Assembly: GCA_963768715.1 (NCBI GenBank)
Contig: CAVYJC010000010.1
Span: 151,458-215,457, forward strand
Length of the DNA stretch: 64,000 nucleotides
Reading direction: 5' to 3'
Source: an uncultured Bacteroidota bacterium
GTDB lineage: Bacteria; Bacteroidota; Rhodothermia; Rhodothermales; DATKEJ01
Shown here one piece after another: positions 14,682 to 49,290 of this stretch; within the stretch, counting starts at the first letter, position 1; every line of letters begins with the position of its first letter. The translations under genes and the position numbers were made by a program. Below the pieces are notes generated by a model that saw nothing but the letters and a program-made list of their open reading frames with translations, ran no database searches and was not told where the DNA came from.

Positions 14682-15194
14682 CTAACGCAGCTTCTTGAGG
14701 ATCTTCTTTGCCCGCTTTATTCGACGATTCAGCTTCTTCATCCGATCGCGGGCATGCGACGCCTTCTTCTTGCTCATGCCTCGCATGCGCTTCTTGAGCT
14801 TCTTTCGTCGCTTGTCGGCGCGCTTAATCCCGGCCGCGAGCGCCTTGCGAGGTCCCTCGATGGGATCTCCGTTCTTGCTCGCCTGACGCGCGGCGCGCGC
14901 CAATTTCGACAAAGAGGGGGGCTTGTCTTTCTTTCCAGACCAGGCCTCTTCATTCCCGTCAGAAAGGTCGTTAATGGCGTCTCCGAAAACCCCGAGACCG
15001 TCCTTGAGGTACTGACGCCTCCAGTAGAGAACGCGCCCCGGTGAGAGATCCACCTTCTCTGCGATCTCGCTCGCCTTCATTCCCGCCTCGTAGAGAAGGA
15101 GCAGGCGGACGCGCTTTCGGATCGTTTCGGATGGATCAGAGGCGGCAAGCCTCTCGATGACAGGAAGATGTTCGGGCTGGATGAAGATGGTCAT
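14682..15194 (-). CDS. HTH-domain protein with a polybasic (Lys/Arg) C-terminal tail; paralog of the PPK N-terminal extension
   Basis: 170 aa. Residues 12-70 align without gaps to residues 12-70 of the adjacent PPK (26/59 identical by hand count). In the last 50 residues, 27 are K or R. Confidence 0.6.
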   Translation of the reverse strand: MTIFIQPEHLPVIERLAASDPSETIRKRVRLLLLYEAGMKASEIAEKVDLSPGRVLYWRRQYLKDGLGVFGDAINDLSDGNEEAWSGKKDKPPSLSKLARAARQASKNGDPIEGPRKALAAGIKRADKRRKKLKKRMRGMSKKKASHARDRMKKLNRRIKRAKKILKKLR

Positions 15195-15204
15195 AGGCTG
15201 CCGC

Positions 15205-17592
15205 TTATTCTTTCACGTTTGACGTATGCCGGAGAAAATGCTCCTGGCAATTGAGAGAGTCCTCCAAAGGGTCCAAATCGGGTCGTGCGAACGAGCCGTC
15301 AGACTGCATGATACGTACCTTCTGGTTGTCGGCAAGATACGTTGTCAGGATTGAGTCTTTGAGTCGCCGAATCATGTCGCGATCCTCGATCGGAAATAGA
15401 ATCTCGACTCGACGGTTAAGATTGCGAGGCATCATATCGGCGCTTCCGAGATAGATAACCTCGTTTCCTGCATTTCGGAAGTAGTAAATGCGGCTGTGCT
15501 CGAGAAATCGTCCGACGATGCTCCGTACGGTAATGTTGTCGCTGACACCCGGCAGACCGGGACGCAGACAACACACGCCGCGGACGATCAGCTCGACGCG
15601 AACTCCTGCCTGGGACGCCTCGTAAAGCAGCCGGATTATTCCACTATCGACGAGCGAGTTCATTTTGAACACCAAATGGCCCCCGCGTCCCGCCTTCTGA
15701 TGATCGATCTCGCGCTTGATGAGCTCCTCCATCTTGAGCCGGAGCGACACAGGAGCCACGAACAGCTTCCTATAGGTCTTCTGCGCGGAATACCCCGTGA
15801 GAAAATTGAAGAGGTCGGTCGCGTCGGCGCCGATGTCCGGATCAGCGGTGAAGTAGCCGAGATCCTCATACAGGCGAGCCGTGACCGAGTTATAGTTGCC
15901 AGTCGCCAGATGGATATATCGCCGGATGTGCTCCCCCTCCGATCTCACCACCAGTGCAATCTTCGAGTGCGTCTTTAGTCCGAGCAGTCCATAGATCACG
16001 TGTACGCCGGCGTCTTCGAGGACCTTCGCCCAGCCAATGTTGCTTTCCTCGTCGAACCGCGCCTTGAGTTCGACCAGCACGGTCACCTGTTTGCCATTTT
16101 CCCGTGCGTGAAGCAGCGCTTCCACGACTGGCGAGTTTCTTCCGACCCGATAGAGCGTCTGTTTGATCGCGAGCACGTGCGGATCGTGTGCTGCTTCCTC
16201 GAGGAAAGTGATAACGGGGTCGAACGACTCGTATGGCTGATGAAGGAGGAAGTTTTGCTTCCTGATTGCGCTGAATATGTCTGCGTCGCGCACGTCGGTG
16301 CGCAAGGCATCGGGCGTCGTCGGAAGGAATGGAGAATAGAGCAGGTCGAATCGATCCACCTTCCGCCCGAGGTTGAATAGCGAGCTCAAACCAAGCGGCC
16401 CTTCCAGTACGTAGGCATCACGACGATCCATTGCCAGGTTCTCCGACAGGATCTGGCGCAAATCTTCGGGCATCGACGGATTCACCGATACACGGACGAC
16501 CGATCCGAAACGTCGTTTCCTGACACTCTGCTCAACAGATTCGAGTAGATCGGCGGCCTCCAGCTCCTGGATCGCCATGTCGGCATTCCGCGTCACGCGA
16601 AACGGGTGACTTTCGACGACCTCAATGCCGGGGAACAGGGCGCCCAGGTTCGTGGCGATGACCTGCTCGGTCCATACGAAATAGTGGTCGTACGGTACCG
16701 TACCGTCTTTCCGGACGCTGCCCGATGACCTCTTTACGGGGATGAGCCTGGGTATCGAACCGGGCACTTTCAGCCGCGCAAAATGCGTCTGGCCATCGGG
16801 TTTCCTGACCCGCACGGCAAGGTTCAAACTCAGGTTCGAAATGTGTGGAAAGGGGTGACCCGGATCGAACGCCATTGGCGTGAGCACGGGGAAAATGTTC
16901 TGATCGAAATAGTCCTTCGCAACCAACTTCTGCCTTTCAGTCAGCTCATCGTAATTGCTTATGTGGATGCCATTGCGATCCAGCTCGGGCAGCAGATCAT
17001 GAAGGAGAACGCGTCGTGATTCGATCATGAGCTCGTGGGCGACCTTTCGGATGGCGGCCACCTGCTCGGCGGGCGTCATCGCGTCGGGTGACGAATCAGC
17101 GATTCCGGCCTCGATTTGCATCCTCAAACCCCCGACGCGCACCATGAAGAACTCATCCAGGTTCGATGCCACAATGCCAATGAACTTGACTCGCTCGAGG
17201 AGTGGATTACCCGGGTCCTTGGCCTCGTCGAGCACGCGCCGCTGAAACTCCAAGAGACTCAACTCGCGGTTGAGGTAGAGTTTGGGGTCATACAGGCTGA
17301 TCACCCGCTTCGATGAATCCGCCGACCGATCCACTGATGGGCGCCCGTCTCCACCGAACTCGATGTCATCGAGCACCTTCTGAAACATCTCGAGACCATC
17401 CGAAAGGAAGGTCCGTCGCCAGTGGCGGACGCGGGCAGGCGACATGTCAAGCTCGTCTGCTATCTGCTGGGTGCCGTGGCCATCCTGATAGAGCAGAAGC
17501 ACCATGGCGCGCCGGCGTGCGGCCTCGTCGGAGGTGTTCTCCGCGAGGCGAGACAGTGTCGCCTTGTCGCGTTCACTCAGAAGCTCGCTCAT
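15205..17592 (-). CDS. ppk: polyphosphate kinase 1 with a ~100-aa N-terminal HTH extension
   Basis: 795 aa. The canonical PPK1 core starts at ~residue 105 ('YLNRELSLLEFQRRVL', 'SNLDEFFMVRV'). The autophosphorylated His region 'GLKTHSKIALVVR' and two PLD-like C-domains are present. Confidence 0.95.
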   Translation of the reverse strand: MSELLSERDKATLSRLAENTSDEAARRRAMVLLLYQDGHGTQQIADELDMSPARVRHWRRTFLSDGLEMFQKVLDDIEFGGDGRPSVDRSADSSKRVISLYDPKLYLNRELSLLEFQRRVLDEAKDPGNPLLERVKFIGIVASNLDEFFMVRVGGLRMQIEAGIADSSPDAMTPAEQVAAIRKVAHELMIESRRVLLHDLLPELDRNGIHISNYDELTERQKLVAKDYFDQNIFPVLTPMAFDPGHPFPHISNLSLNLAVRVRKPDGQTHFARLKVPGSIPRLIPVKRSSGSVRKDGTVPYDHYFVWTEQVIATNLGALFPGIEVVESHPFRVTRNADMAIQELEAADLLESVEQSVRKRRFGSVVRVSVNPSMPEDLRQILSENLAMDRRDAYVLEGPLGLSSLFNLGRKVDRFDLLYSPFLPTTPDALRTDVRDADIFSAIRKQNFLLHQPYESFDPVITFLEEAAHDPHVLAIKQTLYRVGRNSPVVEALLHARENGKQVTVLVELKARFDEESNIGWAKVLEDAGVHVIYGLLGLKTHSKIALVVRSEGEHIRRYIHLATGNYNSVTARLYEDLGYFTADPDIGADATDLFNFLTGYSAQKTYRKLFVAPVSLRLKMEELIKREIDHQKAGRGGHLVFKMNSLVDSGIIRLLYEASQAGVRVELIVRGVCCLRPGLPGVSDNITVRSIVGRFLEHSRIYYFRNAGNEVIYLGSADMMPRNLNRRVEILFPIEDRDMIRRLKDSILTTYLADNQKVRIMQSDGSFARPDLDPLEDSLNCQEHFLRHTSNVKE

Positions 17593-17777
17593 GATCGCTT
17601 GTCCGGACAGGAAAGCTTAAACCTAATCATCGGTGGTATTACAATTTAGGTCAGGGCGCCGAGTCGGGTAAGAACGTTTTAGGGCGTCCCGGGTTCAACG
17701 CGTCGACCATTCAATGAGTGGTCGCTGAAACTTACCTTCCTGAATCTTTTTCATCTGCTCGCGGCCTTTTCGACTCT

Positions 17778-18962
17778 ATGGCGATCTTCGTTACAGATCC
17801 CTCGGAAGACAGCAAGGTGCCTTTCCTTCGAGGCATCCTGACCCGTTCGCTACAGCAGGCGGGGATGGAATTCGAAGAGGCCTACGAGATTGCGGACCGC
17901 GTCCGTGACTCACTTGGATCAGACGCCGAGATTACCTCCGGTCAGCTCTCCAAACTGGTAGCGAAGCAGCTTCAGGAGTTGGGGCACTCCGAAATCGCGA
18001 AGCGATATCTGAAGCGATCGGTGCCATTGAATCGGATCACCGTACTCGATCGTGACGGACTGCCGCAGCCGTTCTCTAAGGCAAGATTGTCACAGGGTCT
18101 GGAAACCTGTGCGCTTTCGGAGGCCCGCTGCTACGCCATTACGGCGCATATCGAGCAGACCCTTCTTCAGCGGGGTATTCGGGAAATTCAATCGCGCGAG
18201 TTGATCCGGCTCACCTACGAGTACCTTCTCCGCCAAGAATCGAAGGAAGTGGCAAGACGCTATCTGGTCTGGTTCGAGTTCTCCCGGAGCGGCCGACCCC
18301 TTGTGTTGCTGATCGGCGGAACAACCGGGTCGGGCAAGAGCACGATCGGAGCGGAGATCGCGCACCGGCTGAACATCATCCGCACGCAGTCGACCGATCT
18401 TCTCCGCGAGGTGATGCGGCTGATGGTGCCCGAACGTCTGCTGCCCGCTCTGCACACGTCGTCGTTCAGCGCATGGAAGACACTGCCGACCGCGGAAGAC
18501 TTGACCGAGCCGACGTTAAATGGCGATTTCGAGCAGGGCTTCCTGATTCAGGCAAGCCAGGTCGGCGTTGCCATAGAAGGCGTCGTGAGTCGAGCGGAAA
18601 CGGAGCAGATATCGTTGATACTGGAGGGGGTGCACGTACATCCCGCCCTCCAGAACAATATTCGGAGTACATCAGGCGTCATCGTCGTACCAATTCTGCT
18701 TGCCGTGCTGAAGCGAAAGCAGCTTCGAAAACAACTCAAGGGGCGCGGCCATCAGGTCTCGACGCGGCGCGCCGAGCGCTATTTGGAACACTTCGATGAA
18801 ATCTGGCACCTGCAGAGCTTTCTCCTGCGGGAAGCAGACCGTTTCAATATCCCGATTATCTCCAATACCGATCAGGATGAAACGATCAAGAGCATCATGA
18901 CGACCATTGTGGATCGACTCTCCGAAGAATTTGCCGGAGATCCGAAGCAGATGCTCGGCTGA
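17778..18962 (+). CDS. two tandem ATP-cone domains fused to a P-loop kinase (2-phosphoglycerate kinase-like, COG2074-type)
   Basis: Two ATP-cone-like segments are visible ('IFVTDPSEDSKVPFLRGIL...', 'ITVLDRDGLPQPFSKARL...'), followed by the Walker A 'GGTTGSGKST'. The track start at 17718 is a GTG; the ATG at 17778 is preferred. Confidence 0.6.
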   Translation: MAIFVTDPSEDSKVPFLRGILTRSLQQAGMEFEEAYEIADRVRDSLGSDAEITSGQLSKLVAKQLQELGHSEIAKRYLKRSVPLNRITVLDRDGLPQPFSKARLSQGLETCALSEARCYAITAHIEQTLLQRGIREIQSRELIRLTYEYLLRQESKEVARRYLVWFEFSRSGRPLVLLIGGTTGSGKSTIGAEIAHRLNIIRTQSTDLLREVMRLMVPERLLPALHTSSFSAWKTLPTAEDLTEPTLNGDFEQGFLIQASQVGVAIEGVVSRAETEQISLILEGVHVHPALQNNIRSTSGVIVVPILLAVLKRKQLRKQLKGRGHQVSTRRAERYLEHFDEIWHLQSFLLREADRFNIPIISNTDQDETIKSIMTTIVDRLSEEFAGDPKQMLG

Positions 18963-18978
18963 ATCCACCTATTGATAT

Positions 18979-20247
18979 ATGAAGCGACACAAGGGACTGA
19001 TGATCGTATTGGACGGTCTTGGCGATCGTCCTACCAAAACCCTGAACGGCCTGACACCGCTCGAGGCGGCAAACATCCCGACACTCGACCGCCTGGCGGC
19101 TGAAGGACAGACCGGCTTTGTCTCTCCTCTCGAACCATGGGTACCGGTCGGCACCCAGACGGGGATGGGTATGCTGATGGGCCTGGCAAAGGCCGACGCG
19201 CGTCTCCTCACGCGAGGGCCTGTCGAAGCGGCCGGCTGTGGAATCCCACTCAAGGCCGGAGACGTCGCGCTGCGCTGCAACCTGGCGACCATTTCTTCGA
19301 ACGGATCGGGGTTCGACCTGCTCGACAGGAGGGCCGGTCGCATCACCGAGGGCGTGGATGAACTCTTGCTTCCAATCGACGGACTCTCTCTGGGCAACGG
19401 AATCTCTGTCAGAGCCCGACCGTCGACGCATCACCGGGCGGTCGTGTCTCTGGTTGGAGAAGACCTCTCAGGTGCTGTCACCGACACCGATCCCGGTGCC
19501 GGTCTCGAGGATCAGGGCGTCCTCGTCTCCCACCCTCGCGACGACAGCGAGGCCGCGGCGCGAACTGCGGTGGCGATTAACGCGCTCATCCGTCTGGCCC
19601 ACGAAGCCATGGCCGCTCATCCAGTAAACAAGGAACGCCAGTCGCGCGGAGAGCATCCCGCTAACGGATTGATCACGCGGGGGGCGGGCATGGTGTTTTC
19701 AACGCGGAACCTGATCGCGCACCTCGGCCTCAAGGCGGCAGTAATTACGGGCGAAGGCACAGTCATTGGCTTGGGGAGTCTTTTCGGCTTCGACGTGATC
19801 GTTCGCGATTCGTTCGACGCTTTGCCATCGACGGATATCGAGGGGAAACTCGCCGCGGCTTCGGAAGCCCTCGCCACCCATGATCTTGCAATCGTTCACG
19901 TCAAGGCAACCGACGTGCTCGCGCACGACGGCGATTCGGTCGGAAAAGCGAGGTTTCTGGAACGATTCGATGCGGCACTCTCGAAGCTGGCCCTCGACGA
20001 ACTTGCCGTCGCCGTTACGGGAGATCATACGACCGACTCCAACTCCGGACGTCATACGGGCGACCCTGTGCCGGCGCTGATCAGAGCTCCAGAAGGTCGC
20101 TTGGACGGCGTGACTGTGTTCTCAGAGAGCAGCTGCCTCGCGGGCGGACTCGGGTATTTGTCCGCCACGTCATTCCTTTGCTGCCTGCTGGACTTAATGA
20201 ATCGGATGCATCTCCACCGGGCGTACGAGCACTATTTCTACGAGTAG
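18979..20247 (+). CDS. apgM: cofactor-independent phosphoglycerate mutase, archaeal type (ApgM family)
   Basis: 422 aa. 'LMIVLDGLGDRP...LTPLEAANIPTLDRLA', 'HVKATDVLAHDG' and 'VTGDHTTDS' match the alkaline-phosphatase-superfamily ApgM pattern. Confidence 0.8.
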   Translation: MKRHKGLMIVLDGLGDRPTKTLNGLTPLEAANIPTLDRLAAEGQTGFVSPLEPWVPVGTQTGMGMLMGLAKADARLLTRGPVEAAGCGIPLKAGDVALRCNLATISSNGSGFDLLDRRAGRITEGVDELLLPIDGLSLGNGISVRARPSTHHRAVVSLVGEDLSGAVTDTDPGAGLEDQGVLVSHPRDDSEAAARTAVAINALIRLAHEAMAAHPVNKERQSRGEHPANGLITRGAGMVFSTRNLIAHLGLKAAVITGEGTVIGLGSLFGFDVIVRDSFDALPSTDIEGKLAAASEALATHDLAIVHVKATDVLAHDGDSVGKARFLERFDAALSKLALDELAVAVTGDHTTDSNSGRHTGDPVPALIRAPEGRLDGVTVFSESSCLAGGLGYLSATSFLCCLLDLMNRMHLHRAYEHYFYE

Positions 20248-20286: not shown

Positions 20287-21552
20287 TCAACCGAAGATGC
20301 CGCGCAGAACGAAGAAGAATAGGGCGGCCAGACCTGCGCCGATCGGGAGTGTGACCAGCCATGAAATGATGATTCGGCCGATGACGCGAAGATCCAGGGC
20401 GGCAAAGCCGCGCGCGAGACCAACGCCCATCACCGCACCAACGAGAATGTGTGTCGTAGAAACGGGGATTCCCGTCCGCGAAGCGACCACGACCGTCGCA
20501 GCAGCGGCAAGCTCCGCGCAGAATCCACGTGTCGGTGTCAGCTCGGTAATCTTCTCGCCGATGGTTCGCATGACGCGATAGCCCATCGTCGCGAGACCGC
20601 TGACAATGCCCGCGCCGCCCAGAAGCAGAATCCATAACGGCAGTTCCGAGCTCTGCGCCACCTCACCTCCGGACTTCACGATGCTCGCGACGGCAGCCAG
20701 CGGACCGATCCCGTTCGCGACGTCATTCGATCCATGGGCAAACGCCATCGCGCAGGCAGTGAATATCTGCATGGGCGCAAAGACGCGTTCGACGCTCGCA
20801 AAGTGATAGGTCTTCTCCCCGGCGGGATCCGGCTGCTTTCGACGAATGACGCTCCAACCGATGACACCTGCGATGAGACCCACAACGGCCGCCCAGAAGA
20901 GACTCATTCCGAACGAAAGCGTAATATCGAGATGCGTCAGGCCCTTGAAGAGTGTCACGAGGGCGATCAGAAACCCGACAAGCGTCACATAGGCGGGGCC
21001 CCATTTCTTTGCATTCTCAAATGGATGCTCGGTGTCCAGAATCAAACGCCGGACAGATACCATGAGAAGCAGTGCAATGAGTCCACCGAGTATCGGCGAA
21101 ACGACCCAACTCGCGACGATTTCAGTCACCGTGCCCCACTGCACGCCGTCGACGCCAATTCCGACGACGGCAAAGCCGACGATGGCGCCCACAATCGAGT
21201 GTGTGGTCGACACGGGCCATCCGCGTGCCGAAGCAATCATCAGCCAGACTCCTGCTGCGAGAAGCGACGCCAGCATCCCGTAAATGATGAGCTCCGGGTG
21301 ACCGATGAGAGGTGCGGGATCGACCACGCCTTTTCGGATCGTGGATGTGACGTGTCCGCCGGCAAGGACTACGCCGGCAAATTCGAATATGGCGGCAACC
21401 AGAATGGCCTTCCGCACGGTGAGCGCGCCCGAGCCCACGGAAGTCCCCATCGCGTTCGCCACATCGTTCGCCCCAACGCCCCAGGTCATGTAGAACCCGA
21501 AAGCGGCCGCCAGCCCAACAAACCAGGTACCGTAAGTCGCGACGATTTCCAT
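20287..21552 (-). CDS. pit: inorganic phosphate transporter, PiT family
   Basis: 421 aa, polytopic, with the duplicated 'GANDVANAMGTSVGS' / 'GSNDVANGIGP' signature. Confidence 0.9.
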   Translation of the reverse strand: MEIVATYGTWFVGLAAAFGFYMTWGVGANDVANAMGTSVGSGALTVRKAILVAAIFEFAGVVLAGGHVTSTIRKGVVDPAPLIGHPELIIYGMLASLLAAGVWLMIASARGWPVSTTHSIVGAIVGFAVVGIGVDGVQWGTVTEIVASWVVSPILGGLIALLLMVSVRRLILDTEHPFENAKKWGPAYVTLVGFLIALVTLFKGLTHLDITLSFGMSLFWAAVVGLIAGVIGWSVIRRKQPDPAGEKTYHFASVERVFAPMQIFTACAMAFAHGSNDVANGIGPLAAVASIVKSGGEVAQSSELPLWILLLGGAGIVSGLATMGYRVMRTIGEKITELTPTRGFCAELAAAATVVVASRTGIPVSTTHILVGAVMGVGLARGFAALDLRVIGRIIISWLVTLPIGAGLAALFFFVLRGIFG

Positions 21553-21576
21553 TAAGCGGCGATTTGAAGCATGATG

Positions 21577-22257
21577 CTACCGGGCTATCAGTAGTCGCAG
21601 ACGATTCCCGACCTTTTCGGCGTAATCGGCAAGATCACCGATCCATTCGATCAGCTGGTACCAGAACATGACGGAAACGGGCGAGAGCGAGTCCTCTCGA
21701 TCGAAAAGCGCTCTTCCCAGCGCAACGCCCAGTTTGTCCGTCTCCTCTTCCGATGCGTTGAGTGCCGACACCATCTCTTCCACCTGAGCCGCTTCCCGAC
21801 CTCCGAAGCCCATCGCGAGCAGCTCGTCGAGCTCCGCGATAATGTCGGCCGACTGGTGGCAGACGGCGACGCATCGGTCGACCATTTTCGTGAGATCCTC
21901 CTCCATCCCGTCCGGGATTGTCATTCGCCGCTCTACGAGGAGCCCGGCAATGTCCTGCGCCACGTCCGCAATCGAGTCCTGCATGTCGAGTACCTCGAGA
22001 AGATCTCGACGATCGACGGGAAGAAACAGGCTGCGGGGAAGGTGCCGCCGAAGATCGTTCTTGATTCGGTCGGCTTCCTCCTCGGCGGCATAGATCGCCT
22101 CCTTTGCCTCTGCGACGGCAGCAACATCTCCGTCGGCGAGTGCCTTGAAAAGACCGGGGACGATGTCGACGGTGGCTATTGCCGCCGTCATGTGCTCTTG
22201 CAGCGACGTGAAGGGGTTATTCCCGAAAAGACTCGCAAACGGATTGGTCGGCGGCAC
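21577..22257 (-). CDS. DUF47 / TIGR00153-family Pit accessory protein (PhoU-related)
   Basis: 226 aa, all-helical, with a 'EEEADRIK.DLRRHL' pattern. It lies directly upstream of pit, as is typical for this family. Confidence 0.8.
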   Translation of the reverse strand: MPPTNPFASLFGNNPFTSLQEHMTAAIATVDIVPGLFKALADGDVAAVAEAKEAIYAAEEEADRIKNDLRRHLPRSLFLPVDRRDLLEVLDMQDSIADVAQDIAGLLVERRMTIPDGMEEDLTKMVDRCVAVCHQSADIIAELDELLAMGFGGREAAQVEEMVSALNASEEETDKLGVALGRALFDREDSLSPVSVMFWYQLIEWIGDLADYAEKVGNRLRLLIAR

Positions 22258-22328
22258 GAGGTATCGTATTTGGTGATTCTTCGGAATCTACGAACCGTCC
22301 ACCTTGCGTGAAATGCAGCCCGACAATC

Positions 22329-23156
22329 TCAGCCGTACCGCCCTTCGATGTAATCGGCGGTCTCCTTACGCTCCGGGCGGAGAAAGAGCTCCTCCGTCTT
22401 TGCATGTTCGACCATCTTTCCCATCAGCATGAATGCACATTCATCGCTCGCCCGGCGAGCCTGCGCCATATTGTGTGTGACGAGCAGGATGGTGTACTGC
22501 CCACGAAGACGCCAGATGAGATCCTCTACGGCCTCCGTCGCCTCAGGATCGAGTGCGGAGCAAGGTTCGTCCATCAGAATTACCGCCGGCTTGACGGGGA
22601 CGAGCCGGGCGATGCAGAGTTTCTGCTGCTCTTCGAGCGACAATTCCGTAGCCCTTTGATCGAGACGATCTTTCACGCGATCCCAGAGGAGGACCTCCCG
22701 AAGCGCCTCTTCAACGATCCGTTCTCCTTCGGCGGCAGGAATACGCCCCTTGCGGGCCTCGTGGAGCGAGTATCCGAAAAGGACATTCTGTCGGATGGAT
22801 ATCGGCAGTGGATTCGGTCGCTGGAATACCATGCCGATCTGCTTGCGTAGCTGCGCGAGGTCCACTAACGGGTCGAATATGTCGTTTCCGAGTACCTCGA
22901 TACGACCCTCCGTACGTACATAGCCCAGGCGCTCGTTGATCCGGTTTACCGATCTGAGCAGGGTGGACTTGCCACATCCCGACGGGCCGATCAGCGACGT
23001 GACCAGGCCGCGCTTTACCTGGAAATTGATGTCGAACAGCGCCTGGAAGGTGCCGTACCAGAGATTCAGGCTGTGCGTCTGTATGGCCAGATCCGACGGA
23101 TGCTCCAGGGATGGAGATGTCGCTCGGGAAGGTTCTTGGCTCGCCGTATCGCTCAT
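22329..23156 (-). CDS. pstB: phosphate ABC transporter ATP-binding protein PstB, with a degenerate signature motif
   Basis: It has Walker A 'GPSGCGKST', Q-loop 'VFQRPNP', Walker B 'ILMDEPCSALD', H-loop 'VTHNM' and the C-terminal 'DYIEGRYG'. The ABC signature reads 'LSLEEQQKL' instead of LSGGQQQRL. Confidence 0.9.
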   Translation of the reverse strand: MSDTASQEPSRATSPSLEHPSDLAIQTHSLNLWYGTFQALFDINFQVKRGLVTSLIGPSGCGKSTLLRSVNRINERLGYVRTEGRIEVLGNDIFDPLVDLAQLRKQIGMVFQRPNPLPISIRQNVLFGYSLHEARKGRIPAAEGERIVEEALREVLLWDRVKDRLDQRATELSLEEQQKLCIARLVPVKPAVILMDEPCSALDPEATEAVEDLIWRLRGQYTILLVTHNMAQARRASDECAFMLMGKMVEHAKTEELFLRPERKETADYIEGRYG

Positions 23157-23165
23157 GGTATTCGC

Positions 23166-23954
23166 TCAGCCAAATCGGCCGAGAATGTAGTCGTGCGTTC
23201 TCTGGTCTTTGACGTTCCCCTCGAAGAGATCCTCTGTCTTACCGATCTCCACGCAGCGACCGCTCAGGAAAAAGGCGGTTCGCTCGGCCAGCCGTCGCGC
23301 CTGCTGTACCAGGTTGGTCACCAGGACGATTGTAATCTCTTTCCGCAACTCCTTGAGGACATCCTCGATTCGCATCGTCGTTACAGGATCGACGGCGATC
23401 GAAAATTCGTCGAGCACGAGCAACCTTGGCTCCTGTGACAAAGCCCTGGCAATCGTGAGTCGCTGTTGCTGGCCGCCCGACAGGAGGCTGCCAAGCGAGT
23501 TCAGTCGGTCCTTCACCTCGTCCCACAACGCGGCCCGGCTCAGACACCGTTCGACAATTTCATCGAGACGCCTCTTGTCCTTGATCCCCGACAGGCGAGG
23601 AGCGAGCGCCACGTTGTCGTAGACGCTCAGGGGAAGTCCGACCGGGAGTGGAAAGACCACGCCGATTTGGCTTCTCAGCGCATATACATTCCGCCACTCG
23701 GTCACGTCGCGGCCGAGAAAGCGGATTGTGCCCGACACTTTCATGTCGGTATTGAACAAGTCCATCCGACTCAACGCCCGTAGAAAGGACGTTTTGCCGC
23801 TATTGGCCGGACCGATAATGCCGAAAATCTCGTGTTCGTTCACCTGGAGGTTCACGTCGTTGAGCGCTTCGGTCGGTCCGTAGTGGACCGACAGATTCCG
23901 GACGTCCAGAACCGGTTTATACTCTTGTTGGGACCCGTCGAGTGCTTCCGTCAT
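23166..23954 (-). CDS. second PstB-like ATP-binding protein, with degenerate Q-loop and H-loop
   Basis: Walker A is 'GPANSGKTS' and the signature 'LSGGQQQRL' is intact. The Q-loop is 'VVFPLP' (Q->P) and the H-loop is 'LVTNLV' (H->N). The start was set at the ATG at 23954, 5 nt past the pstA stop. Confidence 0.85.
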   Translation of the reverse strand: MTEALDGSQQEYKPVLDVRNLSVHYGPTEALNDVNLQVNEHEIFGIIGPANSGKTSFLRALSRMDLFNTDMKVSGTIRFLGRDVTEWRNVYALRSQIGVVFPLPVGLPLSVYDNVALAPRLSGIKDKRRLDEIVERCLSRAALWDEVKDRLNSLGSLLSGGQQQRLTIARALSQEPRLLVLDEFSIAVDPVTTMRIEDVLKELRKEITIVLVTNLVQQARRLAERTAFFLSGRCVEIGKTEDLFEGNVKDQRTHDYILGRFG

Positions 23955-23958
23955 CACG

Positions 23959-24834
23959 TTACCACTTCTTCCTGCCTCTGAGGTACACCCGAAATCCGAT
24001 CGATAGCGCATTCATGACCAGTACGATCATGATCAGCAGGAGTGCTACGCCGTACGGGAGGGCGTCGGGCACATTCGGAACCTGCGTCGAAACGACGAAC
24101 AGGTGCAACGAAAGAGCCATCGTCTGATCGAATACCGACTCGGGAAGGAACGGGAGAAAGAATGCAGCCCCGGTGAACATGATGGGTGCTGTCTCCCCCG
24201 CCGTTCGGGAGACCTCCAGAATGATACCTGTAAGGATGCCTGAAATGGCGTTCGGAAGGACGATTCGCCGAATGGTCTGCCAGCGCGTGGCGCCCATGCT
24301 CCAGCATGCCTCGCGAAAGGCCATCGGGACAGCCTGAAGTGATTCGCGCGTCGAGACGATCACTACGGGCAAAGTCATGATCGCGAGCGTCAAGCTGGCT
24401 GCGAGAATGCTGGTGCCGATCCCGAAGAACAGGACGAACGCGCCGACGCCGAAAAGGGCGTATACGATGGATGGAACGCCGGCCAGGTTGATAATCGCCA
24501 GATTGATCATCCGCGTCAACATATTGTCGGGCGCGTACTCACTGAGATAGACGGCGGCGGCGACTCCGAGGGGTACCGAAAAGAGCAACGCCGTGGCTAC
24601 CAGGAGGATCGTTCCCAGCAGAGCCGGGAAGATGCCGCCTGCGGTCATCCCCTGCGTCGGAAACGTGAACAGGAATTCTGTCGAAATCATCGGGCCGCCC
24701 CTGATGACGAGGAGGCTGAGGATGATGAGTACCGGAAGGATCAGCAGCACCGTCATCACCCCGAAAAGCAGACGGAACTGCTGCTGAATACGGCGGTCGC
24801 GGTCGTTTCTTTTGGTGGCGGCAAACAAGCTCAT
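23959..24834 (-). CDS. pstA: phosphate ABC transporter permease PstA
   Basis: Polytopic permease with the 'REACWSMGATRWQTI' EAA-loop region. The ATG at 24834 overlaps the pstC stop (ATGA). The longer track ORF is an Arg-rich extension. Confidence 0.9.
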   Translation of the reverse strand: MSLFAATKRNDRDRRIQQQFRLLFGVMTVLLILPVLIILSLLVIRGGPMISTEFLFTFPTQGMTAGGIFPALLGTILLVATALLFSVPLGVAAAVYLSEYAPDNMLTRMINLAIINLAGVPSIVYALFGVGAFVLFFGIGTSILAASLTLAIMTLPVVIVSTRESLQAVPMAFREACWSMGATRWQTIRRIVLPNAISGILTGIILEVSRTAGETAPIMFTGAAFFLPFLPESVFDQTMALSLHLFVVSTQVPNVPDALPYGVALLLIMIVLVMNALSIGFRVYLRGRKKW

Positions 24835-25763
24835 CGGTGCCTCCGGTTGCCTCTCCTGACAACGATGTCCGCCGTCAGGTTGATCACGAAAGTCACGAGA
24901 AAGAGGAGGATACCGAGTGTGAACAGCGCCCCGTAATGTGGCGAACCGACGGCTGTCTCCCCTAATTCCGCGGCGATCGTCGCCGTGAGAGCGCGAACGG
25001 AATCGAATATGCTGGTTGGCATCTGGATCGCGTGGCCACTTGCCATGAGTACGGCCATCGTCTCGCCGAAGCCGCGACCGATCCCAAGGAGAACGGCCGA
25101 GACCAATCCGTTTCGGCCTGCCGGAATGACGACCTTTCGAATTACTTGCCACTTCGTCGCACCCATCGCTTCGGCTGCCTGACGAAAGTCGTCAGGGACA
25201 GCCTTGAGCGCATCCTCCGCAATCGTGGTCATTATCGGCGCTGCCATCAGGCCGAGGATAATCCCCGCGTTGAGCACGTTGAGTCCGATCGGCACGTCGA
25301 ACAGCTTGATGATCAGCGAATTCATGACGCTCAGACCGATAAATCCCCAGACAACCGAAGGGATCGCCGCGAGCAGTTCCACCAGTACTTTGAGTGTCTC
25401 TCGCGTTTTGCCCGATGCGAATTCACCGATGTAGATCGCCGCACCGAGGGAAAATGGTATCGCTACCACCATGGCCATGCCGGTCACGCTGGCAGTTCCT
25501 GCAATGAGCGCGAGCGCACCGTAGGTTGGATGGCGTTCCGAAGTAGGCACCCATCGCGGCGACGTGAAGAACTCTGCGAACTTGAAATCGCCCGTGATGA
25601 AAGAGAGGCCTTCCTTCGTGATGAATACAAAGATGCCGATGATGAAGATCACGGCGGACACGCCCCCGATAAAGAAGGCGATCTGGGCGAACTTGTCGAT
25701 GTACCAGCTCGCTCCTCTGGCGTCCAAGCCACCCTCGTAAGATCCGTCTCTACTTGAAGCCAC
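24831..25763 (-). CDS. pstC: phosphate ABC transporter permease PstC
   Basis: 310 aa, polytopic, with the 'FRQAAEAMGATKWQVI' EAA loop. Confidence 0.9.
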   Translation of the reverse strand: MASSRDGSYEGGLDARGASWYIDKFAQIAFFIGGVSAVIFIIGIFVFITKEGLSFITGDFKFAEFFTSPRWVPTSERHPTYGALALIAGTASVTGMAMVVAIPFSLGAAIYIGEFASGKTRETLKVLVELLAAIPSVVWGFIGLSVMNSLIIKLFDVPIGLNVLNAGIILGLMAAPIMTTIAEDALKAVPDDFRQAAEAMGATKWQVIRKVVIPAGRNGLVSAVLLGIGRGFGETMAVLMASGHAIQMPTSIFDSVRALTATIAAELGETAVGSPHYGALFTLGILLFLVTFVINLTADIVVRRGNRRHR

Positions 25764-25766
25764 GGT

Positions 25767-26849
25767 CTAAGAGAAGTCCTCCCCACGCAATGTTGTCATG
25801 AGCGAAGCGATATAGCCCGAAAGGATGCGGTAGAGGTCCTCCAGAGACTGCTCGTCATCAGGCGACGCCTTGGGCAGGTCCCACCATGTGACGATCACTG
25901 TGTTGAACGGCGCGGGATCGATCACTGCGGCGCTGTCGGGTTCGAGACAGACGATAACCTTGTAGTCGGACCAGGATTCCAGGTCTTTCGCTGCTGTCGG
26001 GCGCAGGTCGGAGGTTTCGTGGCCCAGCCTTTCCAGGAGATCCTTGCAAGCCTTGCTGATCGTCTGCGCCGGTTCGATTCCCGCCGTGGAATAGACGCCG
26101 TGATCGGGATAAGCCTTCTTCGCAATTGCGAGCGCGGTGGGTCCGAGGAGGTCGTTTGATCGATCCAGAAACAGGACGGGCACAGGCTTGCGCTTTTTCG
26201 TCTCTCCGTCGACGACGAAAATGGCGTACTCGCAGACGTTCTTCGCCTGATCGCTGACCCGCTCGAGCATGCTGAGGATAACGAGCGTTCCGAGCAGGTC
26301 GTCCAACGGCCGCTCTGATTCTGCCCCGGTTCTGACGAGCTGCCCGAACGCGACATCGAAGGATTCATCGATTTGTGCCTCGAGAATCATCGTTCCCCGG
26401 GCCAGATCCGCATTTTCCTCGACAAACGCTTTCACCGACTGCTCGAACATCTCGATCGATTCGTGACCTATCAGGCGAATTTCCGACGCCAGCGGATCGA
26501 TGATGGGGGCCTTCAGGCGCGTCGCCTCACGACAAATCGTCGCGGCATAGTCTCCGACGCGTTCGAGTACGACATTGGCTCTAAGGACCGACGAGATCAA
26601 GCGAAGATGACCAGCGGCGGGTAGATGCCTTGCTACGAAGTGGTGGCAGGCTCGATCGCATGCCTCCACCGCGCGATTTATTGGATTGTCTTCGAGGATC
26701 GTCCGATATGCGAGCCGGCTGTCGTGGTGCTCAAGCGCCCGTAGCGACTGCTTGAGGGCAGTCGCTACGAGAACGCCGATTTTCTGGACGCGATCCTTGA
26801 TGTCTTTGAGGTCCTGCTCGAGGCGAACCTCATAGTGATGCTCAGTCAT
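25767..26849 (-). CDS. PhoU-domain protein fused to a catalytically degenerate LMW-PTP/ArsC-like domain
   Basis: The N-terminal ~220 aa carry two PhoU repeats ('LERVGDYAATI', 'LERVSDQAKNV'). The C-terminal ~135 aa are colinear with the LMW phosphatase/ArsC fold ('VLFLDRSNDLLGP', 'VYSTAGIE', 'VIVCLEPD', 'WWDLP') but lack the CX5R Cys and Arg. Confidence 0.75.
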   Translation of the reverse strand: MTEHHYEVRLEQDLKDIKDRVQKIGVLVATALKQSLRALEHHDSRLAYRTILEDNPINRAVEACDRACHHFVARHLPAAGHLRLISSVLRANVVLERVGDYAATICREATRLKAPIIDPLASEIRLIGHESIEMFEQSVKAFVEENADLARGTMILEAQIDESFDVAFGQLVRTGAESERPLDDLLGTLVILSMLERVSDQAKNVCEYAIFVVDGETKKRKPVPVLFLDRSNDLLGPTALAIAKKAYPDHGVYSTAGIEPAQTISKACKDLLERLGHETSDLRPTAAKDLESWSDYKVIVCLEPDSAAVIDPAPFNTVIVTWWDLPKASPDDEQSLEDLYRILSGYIASLMTTLRGEDFS

Positions 26850-26874
26850 CAGGGCACGTTTTGGAGGAGGTCAT

Positions 26875-27756
26875 TTAGGGACAGGTCACAGGGTGCGCCG
26901 GCGCATATCCCTTGTTGAGGATGATGCACTGGCCGGTGTCGCTCAGGATCCAGTCCAGGTACTCTTTGACCGCGCCTTCGGGTTGGTGTGCCGTGTACAT
27001 GAACAGTGGGCGCGCAATCGGATAGCTCCGGTCGACGGCCGTCTCGATCGAGGGCGCAACCGGCTCTTCCCCTGCCGCCGTCTCAACCGGAACGAGTTTG
27101 ACTTCGTCGGTAGCGTAGGCCAATCCGGAGTAGCCGATGGCGCACGGCGTATTCTGAACGAGGTCTACGACGTCCTTTGAGCCCTGCATATCGCGCGAAC
27201 CCAGTTTGTAGTCACCTTCTCCGAGAATCGTCTCGCGGAAATAGGCATAGGTGCCGGAGTTGTTCTGACGGCTGACGCGGATGATTTCCTGATCTTTACA
27301 TCCCGGTACCTCAAATCCCAGATCGGTCCATTTCGTGATTGTGCCATTCTCCCCGTAGATCCCGGCAAGCTGATCGAATGTGAACGACTCGACCGGGTTG
27401 TTCTTGTTGACGTAAACGGCGAGGGCGTCGTAGCCGACGACGAACTCGACCGGCTGCTGGCCATTGGCACGTGCCTGGTCGATTTCCGAGTCTTTCATAG
27501 AGCGACTCGCGTTGGCGATATCTACAGTCCCGTTGATAAGGGCCGCGATTCCGGTTCCCGAGCCCCCGCCGGTGACGGCCACCGCGACGTTGGGATCGAC
27601 GTTGCGATAGGCCTCCGCCCACGCCTGGGCTACGTTCACAAGCGTATCGGAACCCTTGTTTTGGATGACGCTGCGCTGGGAGCCGCCGCCACCGCCGCAT
27701 CCGGCGACGATCAGGAAGGCTGCCGCGAACCGCGCGGTATACTTAAGGTGTTTCAT
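26875..27756 (-). CDS. pstS: phosphate ABC transporter substrate-binding lipoprotein PstS
   Basis: It has the lipobox 'IVAGCGG', plus 'GSDTL', 'GGGSGTGIAALINGTVDIANASR' and 'YSGLAY'. Confidence 0.9.
   Translation of the reverse strand: MKHLKYTARFAAAFLIVAGCGGGGGSQRSVIQNKGSDTLVNVAQAWAEAYRNVDPNVAVAVTGGGSGTGIAALINGTVDIANASRSMKDSEIDQARANGQQPVEFVVGYDALAVYVNKNNPVESFTFDQLAGIYGENGTITKWTDLGFEVPGCKDQEIIRVSRQNNSGTYAYFRETILGEGDYKLGSRDMQGSKDVVDLVQNTPCAIGYSGLAYATDEVKLVPVETAAGEEPVAPSIETAVDRSYPIARPLFMYTAHQPEGAVKEYLDWILSDTGQCIILNKGYAPAHPVTCP

Positions 27757-49215: not shown

Positions 49216-49290
<75 letters not shown>

Follow-up and report, generated by a model that had tools for sequence, protein, structure and literature searches.

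A helix-turn-helix module shared by a Rhodothermales polyphosphate kinase and its basic partner protein marks a candidate family linking polyphosphate to DNA

The polyP operon and its two products

Two adjacent genes on the reverse strand of a 64-kb stretch of contig CAVYJC010000010.1 (hereafter the window), derived from an uncultured bacterium of the Rhodothermales (Bacteroidota), are considered here. The first, ppk1, codes for a polyphosphate (polyP) kinase, PPK1, with an N-terminal helix-turn-helix (HTH) module, while the second codes for a small protein in which a paralog of this module is joined to a highly basic tail (Table 1). Ten nucleotides (GCGGCAGCCT) separate the ppk1 stop codon from the ATG of the small gene, and the two genes are predicted to constitute a polyP operon. 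Exactly two copies of the module were found in the six-frame translation of the window. The ppk1 ATG at position 17592 is the first start codon past an in-frame stop located nine codons upstream, and an in-frame GTG is also present at residue 97. The motif 'YLNRELSLLEF', around which the original prediction placed the beginning of the canonical PPK1 (at approximately residue 105), begins at residue 106, as do the matches to TIGR03705 and PF13089. The four PPK1 Pfam domains occur in order and at full length (PF13089, residues 106-211; PF02503, 221-408; PF17941, 438-603; PF13090, 610-772), and the protein scores 858 bits against TIGR03705 (cutoff 465.85) and 967.6 bits against NF003921 (cutoff 701). 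The C1 domain covers positions 1-166 of the 167 positions of its profile, and an LKTHSK motif is seen in the translation. Judged by these matches, the product of ppk1 is a complete PPK1 with an N-terminal module. No CHAD domain (PF05235) was detected by Pfam in either protein or in the six-frame translation of the window, and a scan for promoters and terminators around the operon returned nothing beyond the expectation from shuffled sequence.

Table 1. Coordinates of the polyP operon and neighbouring features in the window (pI, isoelectric point; dN/dS, ratio of nonsynonymous to synonymous substitution rates; ORF, open reading frame; nt, nucleotides)
Feature	Position	Strand	Basis
ppk1, HTH-module-PPK1 fusion gene, 795 residues	15205-17592	-	ORF, four PPK1 Pfam domains, NF003921
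HTH_23-type module of PPK1, N-terminal, residues 1-77	17362-17592	-	PF13384, AlphaFold2, dN/dS
Variable linker between module and PPK1 N domain, residues 78-105	17278-17361	-	Orthologue comparison, dN
Canonical PPK1 core (N, middle, C1, C2), residues 106-795 and stop	15205-17277	-	Pfam, TIGR03705
Small gene: HTH module, linker and basic helical tail, 170 residues, pI 10.9	14682-15194	-	ORF, 11 homologues
Small-protein HTH_23-type module, residues 1-77, paralogous to that of PPK1	14964-15194	-	PF13384, BLASTP
Small-protein linker, residues 78-112, poorly conserved	14859-14963	-	AlphaFold2, variability in alignment A2
Basic helical tail of the small protein, residues 113-170	14682-14858	-	AlphaFold2, conserved register, dN/dS
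Conserved 36-nt block in the intergenic region between ppk1 and the 2-phosphoglycerate-kinase-like gene, GTCGACGCGTTGAACCCG...AAACGTTC	17672-17707	-	Invariant positions in four loci
2-phosphoglycerate-kinase-like protein, divergent from ppk1	17718-18962	+	Two ATP-cone matches and a P-loop; NF003259
Archaeal-type apgM-like phosphoglycerate mutase, divergent from ppk1	18979-20247	+	
Phosphate island: PiT (PHO4 family), TIGR00153/DUF47-type partner, two consecutive PstB-like ATPases, pst permeases, PhoU-domain protein, PstS	20287-27756		

The shared HTH module

The first ~100 amino acids of PPK1 had been described as HTH-like, and can be resolved into a 77-residue HTH_23 module followed by a variable linker. 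The Pfam family HTH_23 (PF13384; gathering cutoff 24.6 bits) is matched above its gathering score in both proteins, with 40.6 bits for PPK1 residues 25-68 and 32.3 bits for residues 24-67 of the small protein. The two modules align without gaps over residues 12-70 with 26 of 59 identities, precisely the number that had been counted by hand when the second copy was recognised in the gene ten nucleotides past the ppk1 stop, and BLASTP aligns the small protein with PPK1 residues 1-116 at 34% identity over 100 residues (E 4e-19). An AlphaFold2 model of the isolated PPK1 module (predicted local distance difference test score, pLDDT, 89.4; predicted template modelling score 0.77) comprises four helices, at residues 7-19, 23-36, 41-48 and 52-76. 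The module aligns gap-free with 23 homologous modules; residues W58, R59 and R60 are invariant in the close family (alignments A1/A3), while W58 is the sole invariant residue in a broader alignment of 60 sequences (A5), with R28, L33, Y35, G38, R59, G66 and F70 conserved in at least 90%. The conserved positions cluster around the last two helices, the last of which is arginine-rich (R54, R56, W58, R59, R60).

The nearest PDB folds identified by Foldseek are DnaA domain IV, sigma region 4, and LuxR-type, DeoR and recombinase HTHs, all of them DNA-binding, while by sequence the closest PDB entries are HTHs of the LuxR/GerE, sigma-4 and transposase PAI types (E>0.05). The concern that the shared segment might not adopt a DNA-binding fold thus finds no support in the Pfam scores, the model confidence (pLDDT 89) or the fold neighbours, which are exclusively HTHs, none of them significant. 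The segment common to the two proteins is an HTH by its Pfam assignment, with DNA binding predicted. Foldseek matches to the full small-protein model were likewise all non-significant, as is expected from two domains joined by a flexible linker. Matches to the IS630 transposase family (NF033545) are limited to positions 1-44 of the 299-position profile, scoring 26.3 and 21.4 bits against a cutoff of 100, and no DDE or other transposase catalytic domain was detected in either window protein with Pfam and NF033545. In a distance tree of the modules (73 residues, no bootstrap support) the small-protein modules group with those of other tail-bearing proteins, and the derivation of the PPK1 module as a recent duplicate of that in the adjacent small gene is not supported by this tree.

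The basic tail of the small protein

Lysine and arginine account for 27 of the last 50 residues of the small protein, which agrees exactly with the earlier count, and for 29 of the 58 residues of the tail as delimited here (residues 113-170, pI 12.0). The AlphaFold2 model of the small protein (overall pLDDT 81) consists of the module, a disordered stretch at residues 78-90 (pLDDT <50), a short helix at 95-108 and two long helices at 113-137 and 142-169, with pLDDT values of 85-93 over the tail. The hydrophobic register of the tail and a common terminal motif are retained in 18 family members. Searches of Pfam and PDB returned no family and no homologue for the tail. A cryptic CHAD fragment was also considered and ruled out, the hhalign comparison of the tail profile with the CHAD profile giving a probability of 0.1%.

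Conservation in related genomes

Approximately 15 PPK1 clusters, which are among the closest PPK1s to the query (61-85% overall identity), carry the same N-terminal module and, where named, derive from Rhodothermia or Rhodothermales metagenome-assembled genomes (MAGs). The next-closest PPK1s, from Chloroflexota, Anaerolineales and others, are without it. The module begins at residue 1 in all homologues; in the fused PPK1s it aligns from this residue onwards while the linker varies in both length and sequence, such that the core motif starts anywhere between residues 106 and 133. Nei-Gojobori comparisons with three relatives gave dN/dS values of 0.14-0.26 for the PPK1 module, 0.04-0.05 for the kinase core, 0.10 for the small-protein module and 0.16-0.18 for its tail, ratios which are approximate because dS is near saturation, and the PPK1 linker evolves faster than its flanks (dN 0.38-0.55). 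All segments are under purifying selection, and both genes are real. The conservation of the module next to a variable linker, together with its dN/dS of 0.14-0.26, argues against an internal ppk1 start, which had been named as a threat to the proposed extension.

Several database entries appear to have lost the module through annotation. Entry P0028 (743 residues) is without it as a result of a start called too far downstream, while the ORF on its contig (L023, 7671-10163) codes for 830 residues and includes the module. P0034, which starts inside the module, looks like a similar miscall, and P0024 (752 residues) may be another.

The small protein, whose absence from relatives had been another possible outcome, has 11 full-length relatives with 39-68% identity, all with a basic tail, and a fused ppk1 is directly followed by the small paralog in three further loci, namely L005, L016 and L007, the last of which represents a Rhodothermales species in GTDB. 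In comparisons with P0024-P0072, unfused PPK1s from Chloroflexota/Anaerolineales (67-71%) come about as close to the kinase core of the window as do the more distant of the fused Rhodothermales PPK1s (66-70%), and the operon in those Chloroflexota MAGs reads ppk2-ppk2-ppk1-CHAD, which suggests a common, possibly horizontally exchanged polyP gene cluster.

Architectures and gene neighbourhoods of the module family

Among 1.84 billion representative proteins, the module profile has 4,574 matches when E<=0.001 is required and 284 when the limit is E<=1e-10. Architectures were classified for the top 150 of the 4,574 matches. In at least 24 of these a CHAD domain comes after one or two modules, and in approximately 28 one module leads into a basic C-terminus, the latter being either structured and helical, as in the window, or of low complexity and lysine-rich (P0197, P0209). 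Many others are arrays in which HTH_23 modules are repeated in tandem, 3 to 9 or more times, and the remainder are bare modules. Among the arrays, which include P0133-P0142 and others, P0133 holds seven near-full-length HTH_23-like copies, and HMMER reports up to 16 matched stretches; the sole PDB sequence match at E<0.01 was 8vd6 ('CAP REPEAT'), a repeat protein of similar HTH-like units. With the broad profile A5, a word-indexed search of proteins yielded six short proteins only and no architectures. The GTDB genomes, in a scan keyed on PPK-only modules (alignment A4), yielded Bacteroidota MAGs (L011 and L012) in which two tandem modules precede CHAD; these double modules resemble bipartite HTH DNA-binding domains.

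A metagenome scan, in which loci were selected solely by the conserved peptide of the module, recovered 16 loci, five coding for module-PPK1 and 11 for module-CHAD proteins. An unfused ppk1 lies directly upstream, on the same strand, in seven of the 11 module-CHAD loci (L015, L017, L019, L021, L022, L025 and L028). CYTH, the module, Ppx-GppA_III and CHAD occur together in a single 890-residue protein (L029). The named Chloroflexota CHAD proteins encoded after ppk1 were also considered as module carriers and were rejected, their N-terminus being Ppx-GppA_III-like.

The context of the module-tail genes was studied in five loci outside the immediate clade of the window. The gene adjoins ppk2 in three of the five (L032, L033 and L035, with a 4-nucleotide overlap in L035), and pstSCAB/phoU or sodium-phosphate (Na-Pi) transporter genes are present in L032, L034, L035 and L036; in the last three of these the module-tail gene itself has pstSCAB/phoU, Na-Pi transporter or CYTH genes alongside. 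Locus L034 belongs to the complete genome of the cultured species Rhodocaloribacter litoris, where the module-tail gene (WP_166977188.1), annotated as an HTH-domain protein only, has pstSCAB-phoU and a CYTH gene as neighbours. The module-tail genes of two unrelated loci are each followed directly by a gene for a small CBS-pair protein (L032, 5681-6172; L036, 6491-6970). On the evidence of these matches the module belongs to a widespread family, of which the window pair is one instance rather than a unique arrangement.

Comparison with known polyP and granule systems

In Streptomyces, ppk is co-transcribed with the downstream pptA, which codes for a positively charged, polyP-binding CHAD granule protein, or 'phosin' (PMC8003754). 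The window resembles this arrangement in that ppk1 is followed after ten nucleotides by a basic protein, as do the related metagenomic loci in which ppk1 precedes a module-CHAD gene. However, the small protein has an HTH module and no CHAD, and PPK1 itself carries the module. Ppk1 of Caulobacter crescentus has a 22-residue basic tail with a pI of 11.8 that targets the enzyme to granules, which behave as if tethered to the chromosome (PMC3806658). Both this tail and the module are lineage-specific PPK1 appendages, with a proposed role in positioning the enzyme relative to granules and nucleoid, and the pI is close to the 12.0 of the small-protein tail. The Caulobacter tail is short, C-terminal and borne by the enzyme, whereas in the window PPK1 is extended by a folded HTH at its N-terminus and a separate protein carries the basic tail.

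The basic, histone-H1-like tails of AlgP in Pseudomonas aeruginosa and of PhaF on the polyhydroxyalkanoate (PHA) granules of Pseudomonas link granules to the nucleoid (PMC9239181, PMC11894788). Like these, the small protein has two parts, one N-terminal and folded and the other C-terminal and highly basic, and the lysine-rich, low-complexity tails of P0197 and P0209 are comparable. Pfam and NCBIfam scans showed no homology to AlgP or PhaF, and the window tail is predicted to form structured helices (pLDDT >85) and has no KPAA repeats, unlike the intrinsically disordered, Lys/Ala/Pro-rich repeat tails of the AlgP/PhaF type; furthermore, the N-terminal part of AlgP and PhaF is a coiled coil or phasin domain, while that of the small protein is an HTH.

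PF13384 is the best family for the module, which weakly resembles residues 1-44 of IS630 transposases and the PAI subdomain of Sleeping Beauty, a likeness to the N-terminal HTH of IS630-Tc1 transposases. It is distinguished from these by an extra N-terminal helix, a W-R-R...G...F C-terminal signature, purifying selection, its location in a chromosomal operon and the lack of a catalytic domain. A final parallel is provided by trigger enzymes such as PutA and BirA, in which a metabolic enzyme is joined to a DNA-binding domain, permitting autoregulation. PPK1 of the window is likewise an enzyme fused to a DNA-binding-type domain, although here the same module is also found on non-enzymatic polyP binders. 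Overall, the window proteins share the logic of ppk-pptA, Caulobacter Ppk1 and AlgP/PhaF while being members of none of these groups.

A possible adaptor between DNA and polyP

PPK1 and PPK2 make or use polyP. The occurrence of the same module joined to PPK1, CHAD, CYTH-CHAD and basic tails, beside ppk1 and ppk2 genes, makes a two-handed adaptor its simplest reading, with a constant HTH that would hold DNA on one side and a variable partner that would handle polyP on the other. The module would bind DNA through its arginine-rich last helix, while the partner (PPK1, CHAD, CYTH-CHAD or the basic tail) would bind or make polyP. CHAD domains bind polyP specifically and localise to granules, and do not bind single-stranded DNA or RNA (PMC6537752, PMC8003754). 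The small protein would serve as a phosin-like granule protein whose tail would hold polyP electrostatically; it occupies the slot after ppk1 that is taken by the module-CHAD gene in other loci and by pptA in Streptomyces, so that the pI-12 tail is most probably a polyP-binding surface, for which the basic tail directing Caulobacter Ppk1 to granules provides a precedent (PMC3806658). On PPK1, the module would then direct synthesis to those DNA-associated sites as well. Regulation could be a further outcome of such binding, for instance autoregulation of ppk, and would be compatible with a tether.

We consider the chances evenly balanced that the window pair belongs to a family of adaptors by which the chromosome is coupled to polyP granules and to the enzyme that makes polyP. 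More tentatively, the module family at large could consist of general DNA-polyP adaptors that tether granules and synthase in the Rhodothermales, Bacteroidota, Chloroflexota-like and other lineages, and that might also report polyP status to transcription. The original suggestion of a polyP-linked tether, scaffold or regulator is strengthened by the module-CHAD fusions and by the ppk1, ppk2 and pst-phoU neighbours, with the binding of DNA and polyP standing as predictions. The phosphate island within the window speaks for the adaptor reading as well.

Several observations weigh against an adaptor role. Foldseek gave no match for the isolated module at E<=0.001 (best E 0.56, TM-score ~0.5). The pI of the whole module is neutral to acidic, at 5.3 in PPK1 and 6.6 in the small protein, which would be unusual in a non-specific DNA binder. 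The tail shares no homology with CHAD, so that polyP binding is argued from its charge and gene position only, and it could bind DNA instead of polyP, or both. The pairing of fusion and downstream paralog, for which a survey had been recommended, holds in the window, L005, L007 and L016 but not throughout. In L004, which is syntenic (ppk - X - purL - trx) and whose PPK1 is 70% identical, the gene after ppk (2517-2744) codes for a 75-residue module-only paralog, and the tail is truly absent since only 60 nucleotides separate this gene from purL; in the more distant fused clade P0018/P0022/P0025 no small paralog adjoins ppk. The double-module CHAD genes of the Bacteroidota have no polyP genes as neighbours. 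Lastly, the samples from which gene contexts were drawn (16 and five loci) are small and, being picked via conserved peptides, non-random.

Alternative explanations

One-component regulators are as a rule laid out with an HTH at the N-terminus and a ligand-binding domain attached to it. The combination of the module with CHAD, PPK1 or a tail fits this layout, and the family could instead comprise polyP-sensing transcription factors or trigger enzymes, in which the HTH would sit on phosphate or polyP operators while the partner reported the polyP level or enzyme state, with regulation rather than tethering as the main output. We judge this somewhat unlikely. CHAD, as a specific polyP binder, could serve as the sensor (PMC6537752), and the genes lie in or beside ppk1, ppk2 and pst-phoU operons, as is common for autoregulators. 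A 36-nucleotide block upstream of ppk (Table 1) is moreover invariant in four relatives (the window, L005, L007 and L016), where the remainder of the intergenic region has diverged, and contains the palindromes GTCGAC, ACGCGT and AACGTT. The block is a candidate promoter or operator, and could serve either of the two divergent genes; at a distance of 11 nucleotides from the start at 17718, it may be that of the gene divergent from ppk. It is unique in the 64-kb window, without further copies near the pst or pit genes or elsewhere in it, and thus offers no repeated operator. A regulatory role is also at odds with the low-complexity, histone-H1-like lysine tails of many members, which are typical of nucleoid-associated proteins and not of sensors, and with the single short HTH, which lacks a recognised dimerisation domain. 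PhaF is both a granule tether and a regulator, so that regulation and tethering need not be exclusive (PMC11894788).

It is also conceivable, but in our view improbable, that the module does not bind DNA and serves either as a protein-protein assembly domain, bringing together PPK1 and a granule protein, or as a polyP binder acting through its arginine-rich helix. Its presence in two proteins encoded side by side, its acidic to neutral overall charge with one strongly basic helix, the tandem arrays of 3-16 related modules reminiscent of repeat scaffolds, and the lack of a significant fold match are all consistent with such a function. However, PPK1 is without the module in most loci where ppk1 precedes a module-CHAD gene, so that recruitment of PPK1 through module-module contacts cannot be the general function; where the partner already binds polyP, as CHAD does, a second polyP binder would be superfluous, and the sequence and fold neighbours are all DNA-binding HTHs. 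Finally, a miscalled start or a decayed IS630-type transposase fragment with a non-functional leftover ORF, as might be read from the weak IS630 N-terminal HTH matches (26 and 21 bits), the JGI label 'transposase-like protein' on some members and the in-frame GTG at residue 97, is highly improbable given that these scores fall far below the 100-bit cutoff over 44 residues without a DDE domain, that the module is conserved from residue 1 in ~15 PPK1 clusters with dN/dS values of 0.14-0.26 (0.10-0.18 for the small gene), and that the same architecture recurs in independent loci.

Genomic surroundings

The genes divergent from ppk1 code for the 2-phosphoglycerate-kinase-like protein, which scores 298.8 bits against NF003259, below the cutoff of 343, and for the apgM-like mutase. 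The ATP-cone/P-loop gene is found again next to phosphate or module genes in L005 (266-2732), in R. litoris L034 (1-66) and in L036 (7604-8785), and may belong to the same phosphate-linked neighbourhood. Beyond these genes lies the phosphate island, in which the PhoU-domain protein is unusually long at 360 residues. In the more distant Rhodothermales clade, a protein with ATP-grasp and PGM1_C domains is encoded directly upstream of the fused ppk1 (L001, 4018-5652; L002, 4294-5910; L006, 385-2049), and such a protein is also found two genes past the PPK2/module-tail pair of L032 (6283-7869). A single RNA gene was detected in the window, a tRNA-Ala (GGC) at 49216-49289, no other Rfam families being matched there at gathering thresholds.

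Conclusions

PolyP granules are found in or on the nucleoid in many bacteria and their position and inheritance depend on the chromosome, with a connector known only in the form of Pseudomonas AlgP; the link between granule and nucleoid is still called unresolved in papers up to 2026 (PMC3806658, PMC11894788, PMC13556221). Full-text literature searches found no paper on an HTH on PPK1, on HTH-CHAD proteins or on the small protein family, and to our knowledge no earlier PPK1 with a DNA-binding-type domain is known. The arrangement therefore does appear to be undescribed, as had been supposed, although the pair is one case of a much wider family. The role of this candidate family may be that of a granule-nucleoid tether, of a polyP-sensing regulator, or of both. 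Existing database labels can be corrected in its light, including 'transposase-like protein', 'helix-turn-helix domain-containing protein' and PPK1 entries with starts placed too far downstream. With one HTH module, at least three independent kinds of polyP-handling partner and a recurrent location in polyP and phosphate operons, it constitutes a sequence-defined candidate for the link between polyP and DNA, and the question is open to direct test, with a member available in a cultured species with a complete genome (R. litoris, WP_166977188.1). Should the adaptor role hold true, the family would represent the missing connectors between polyP granules, or the polyP synthase, and the bacterial chromosome.

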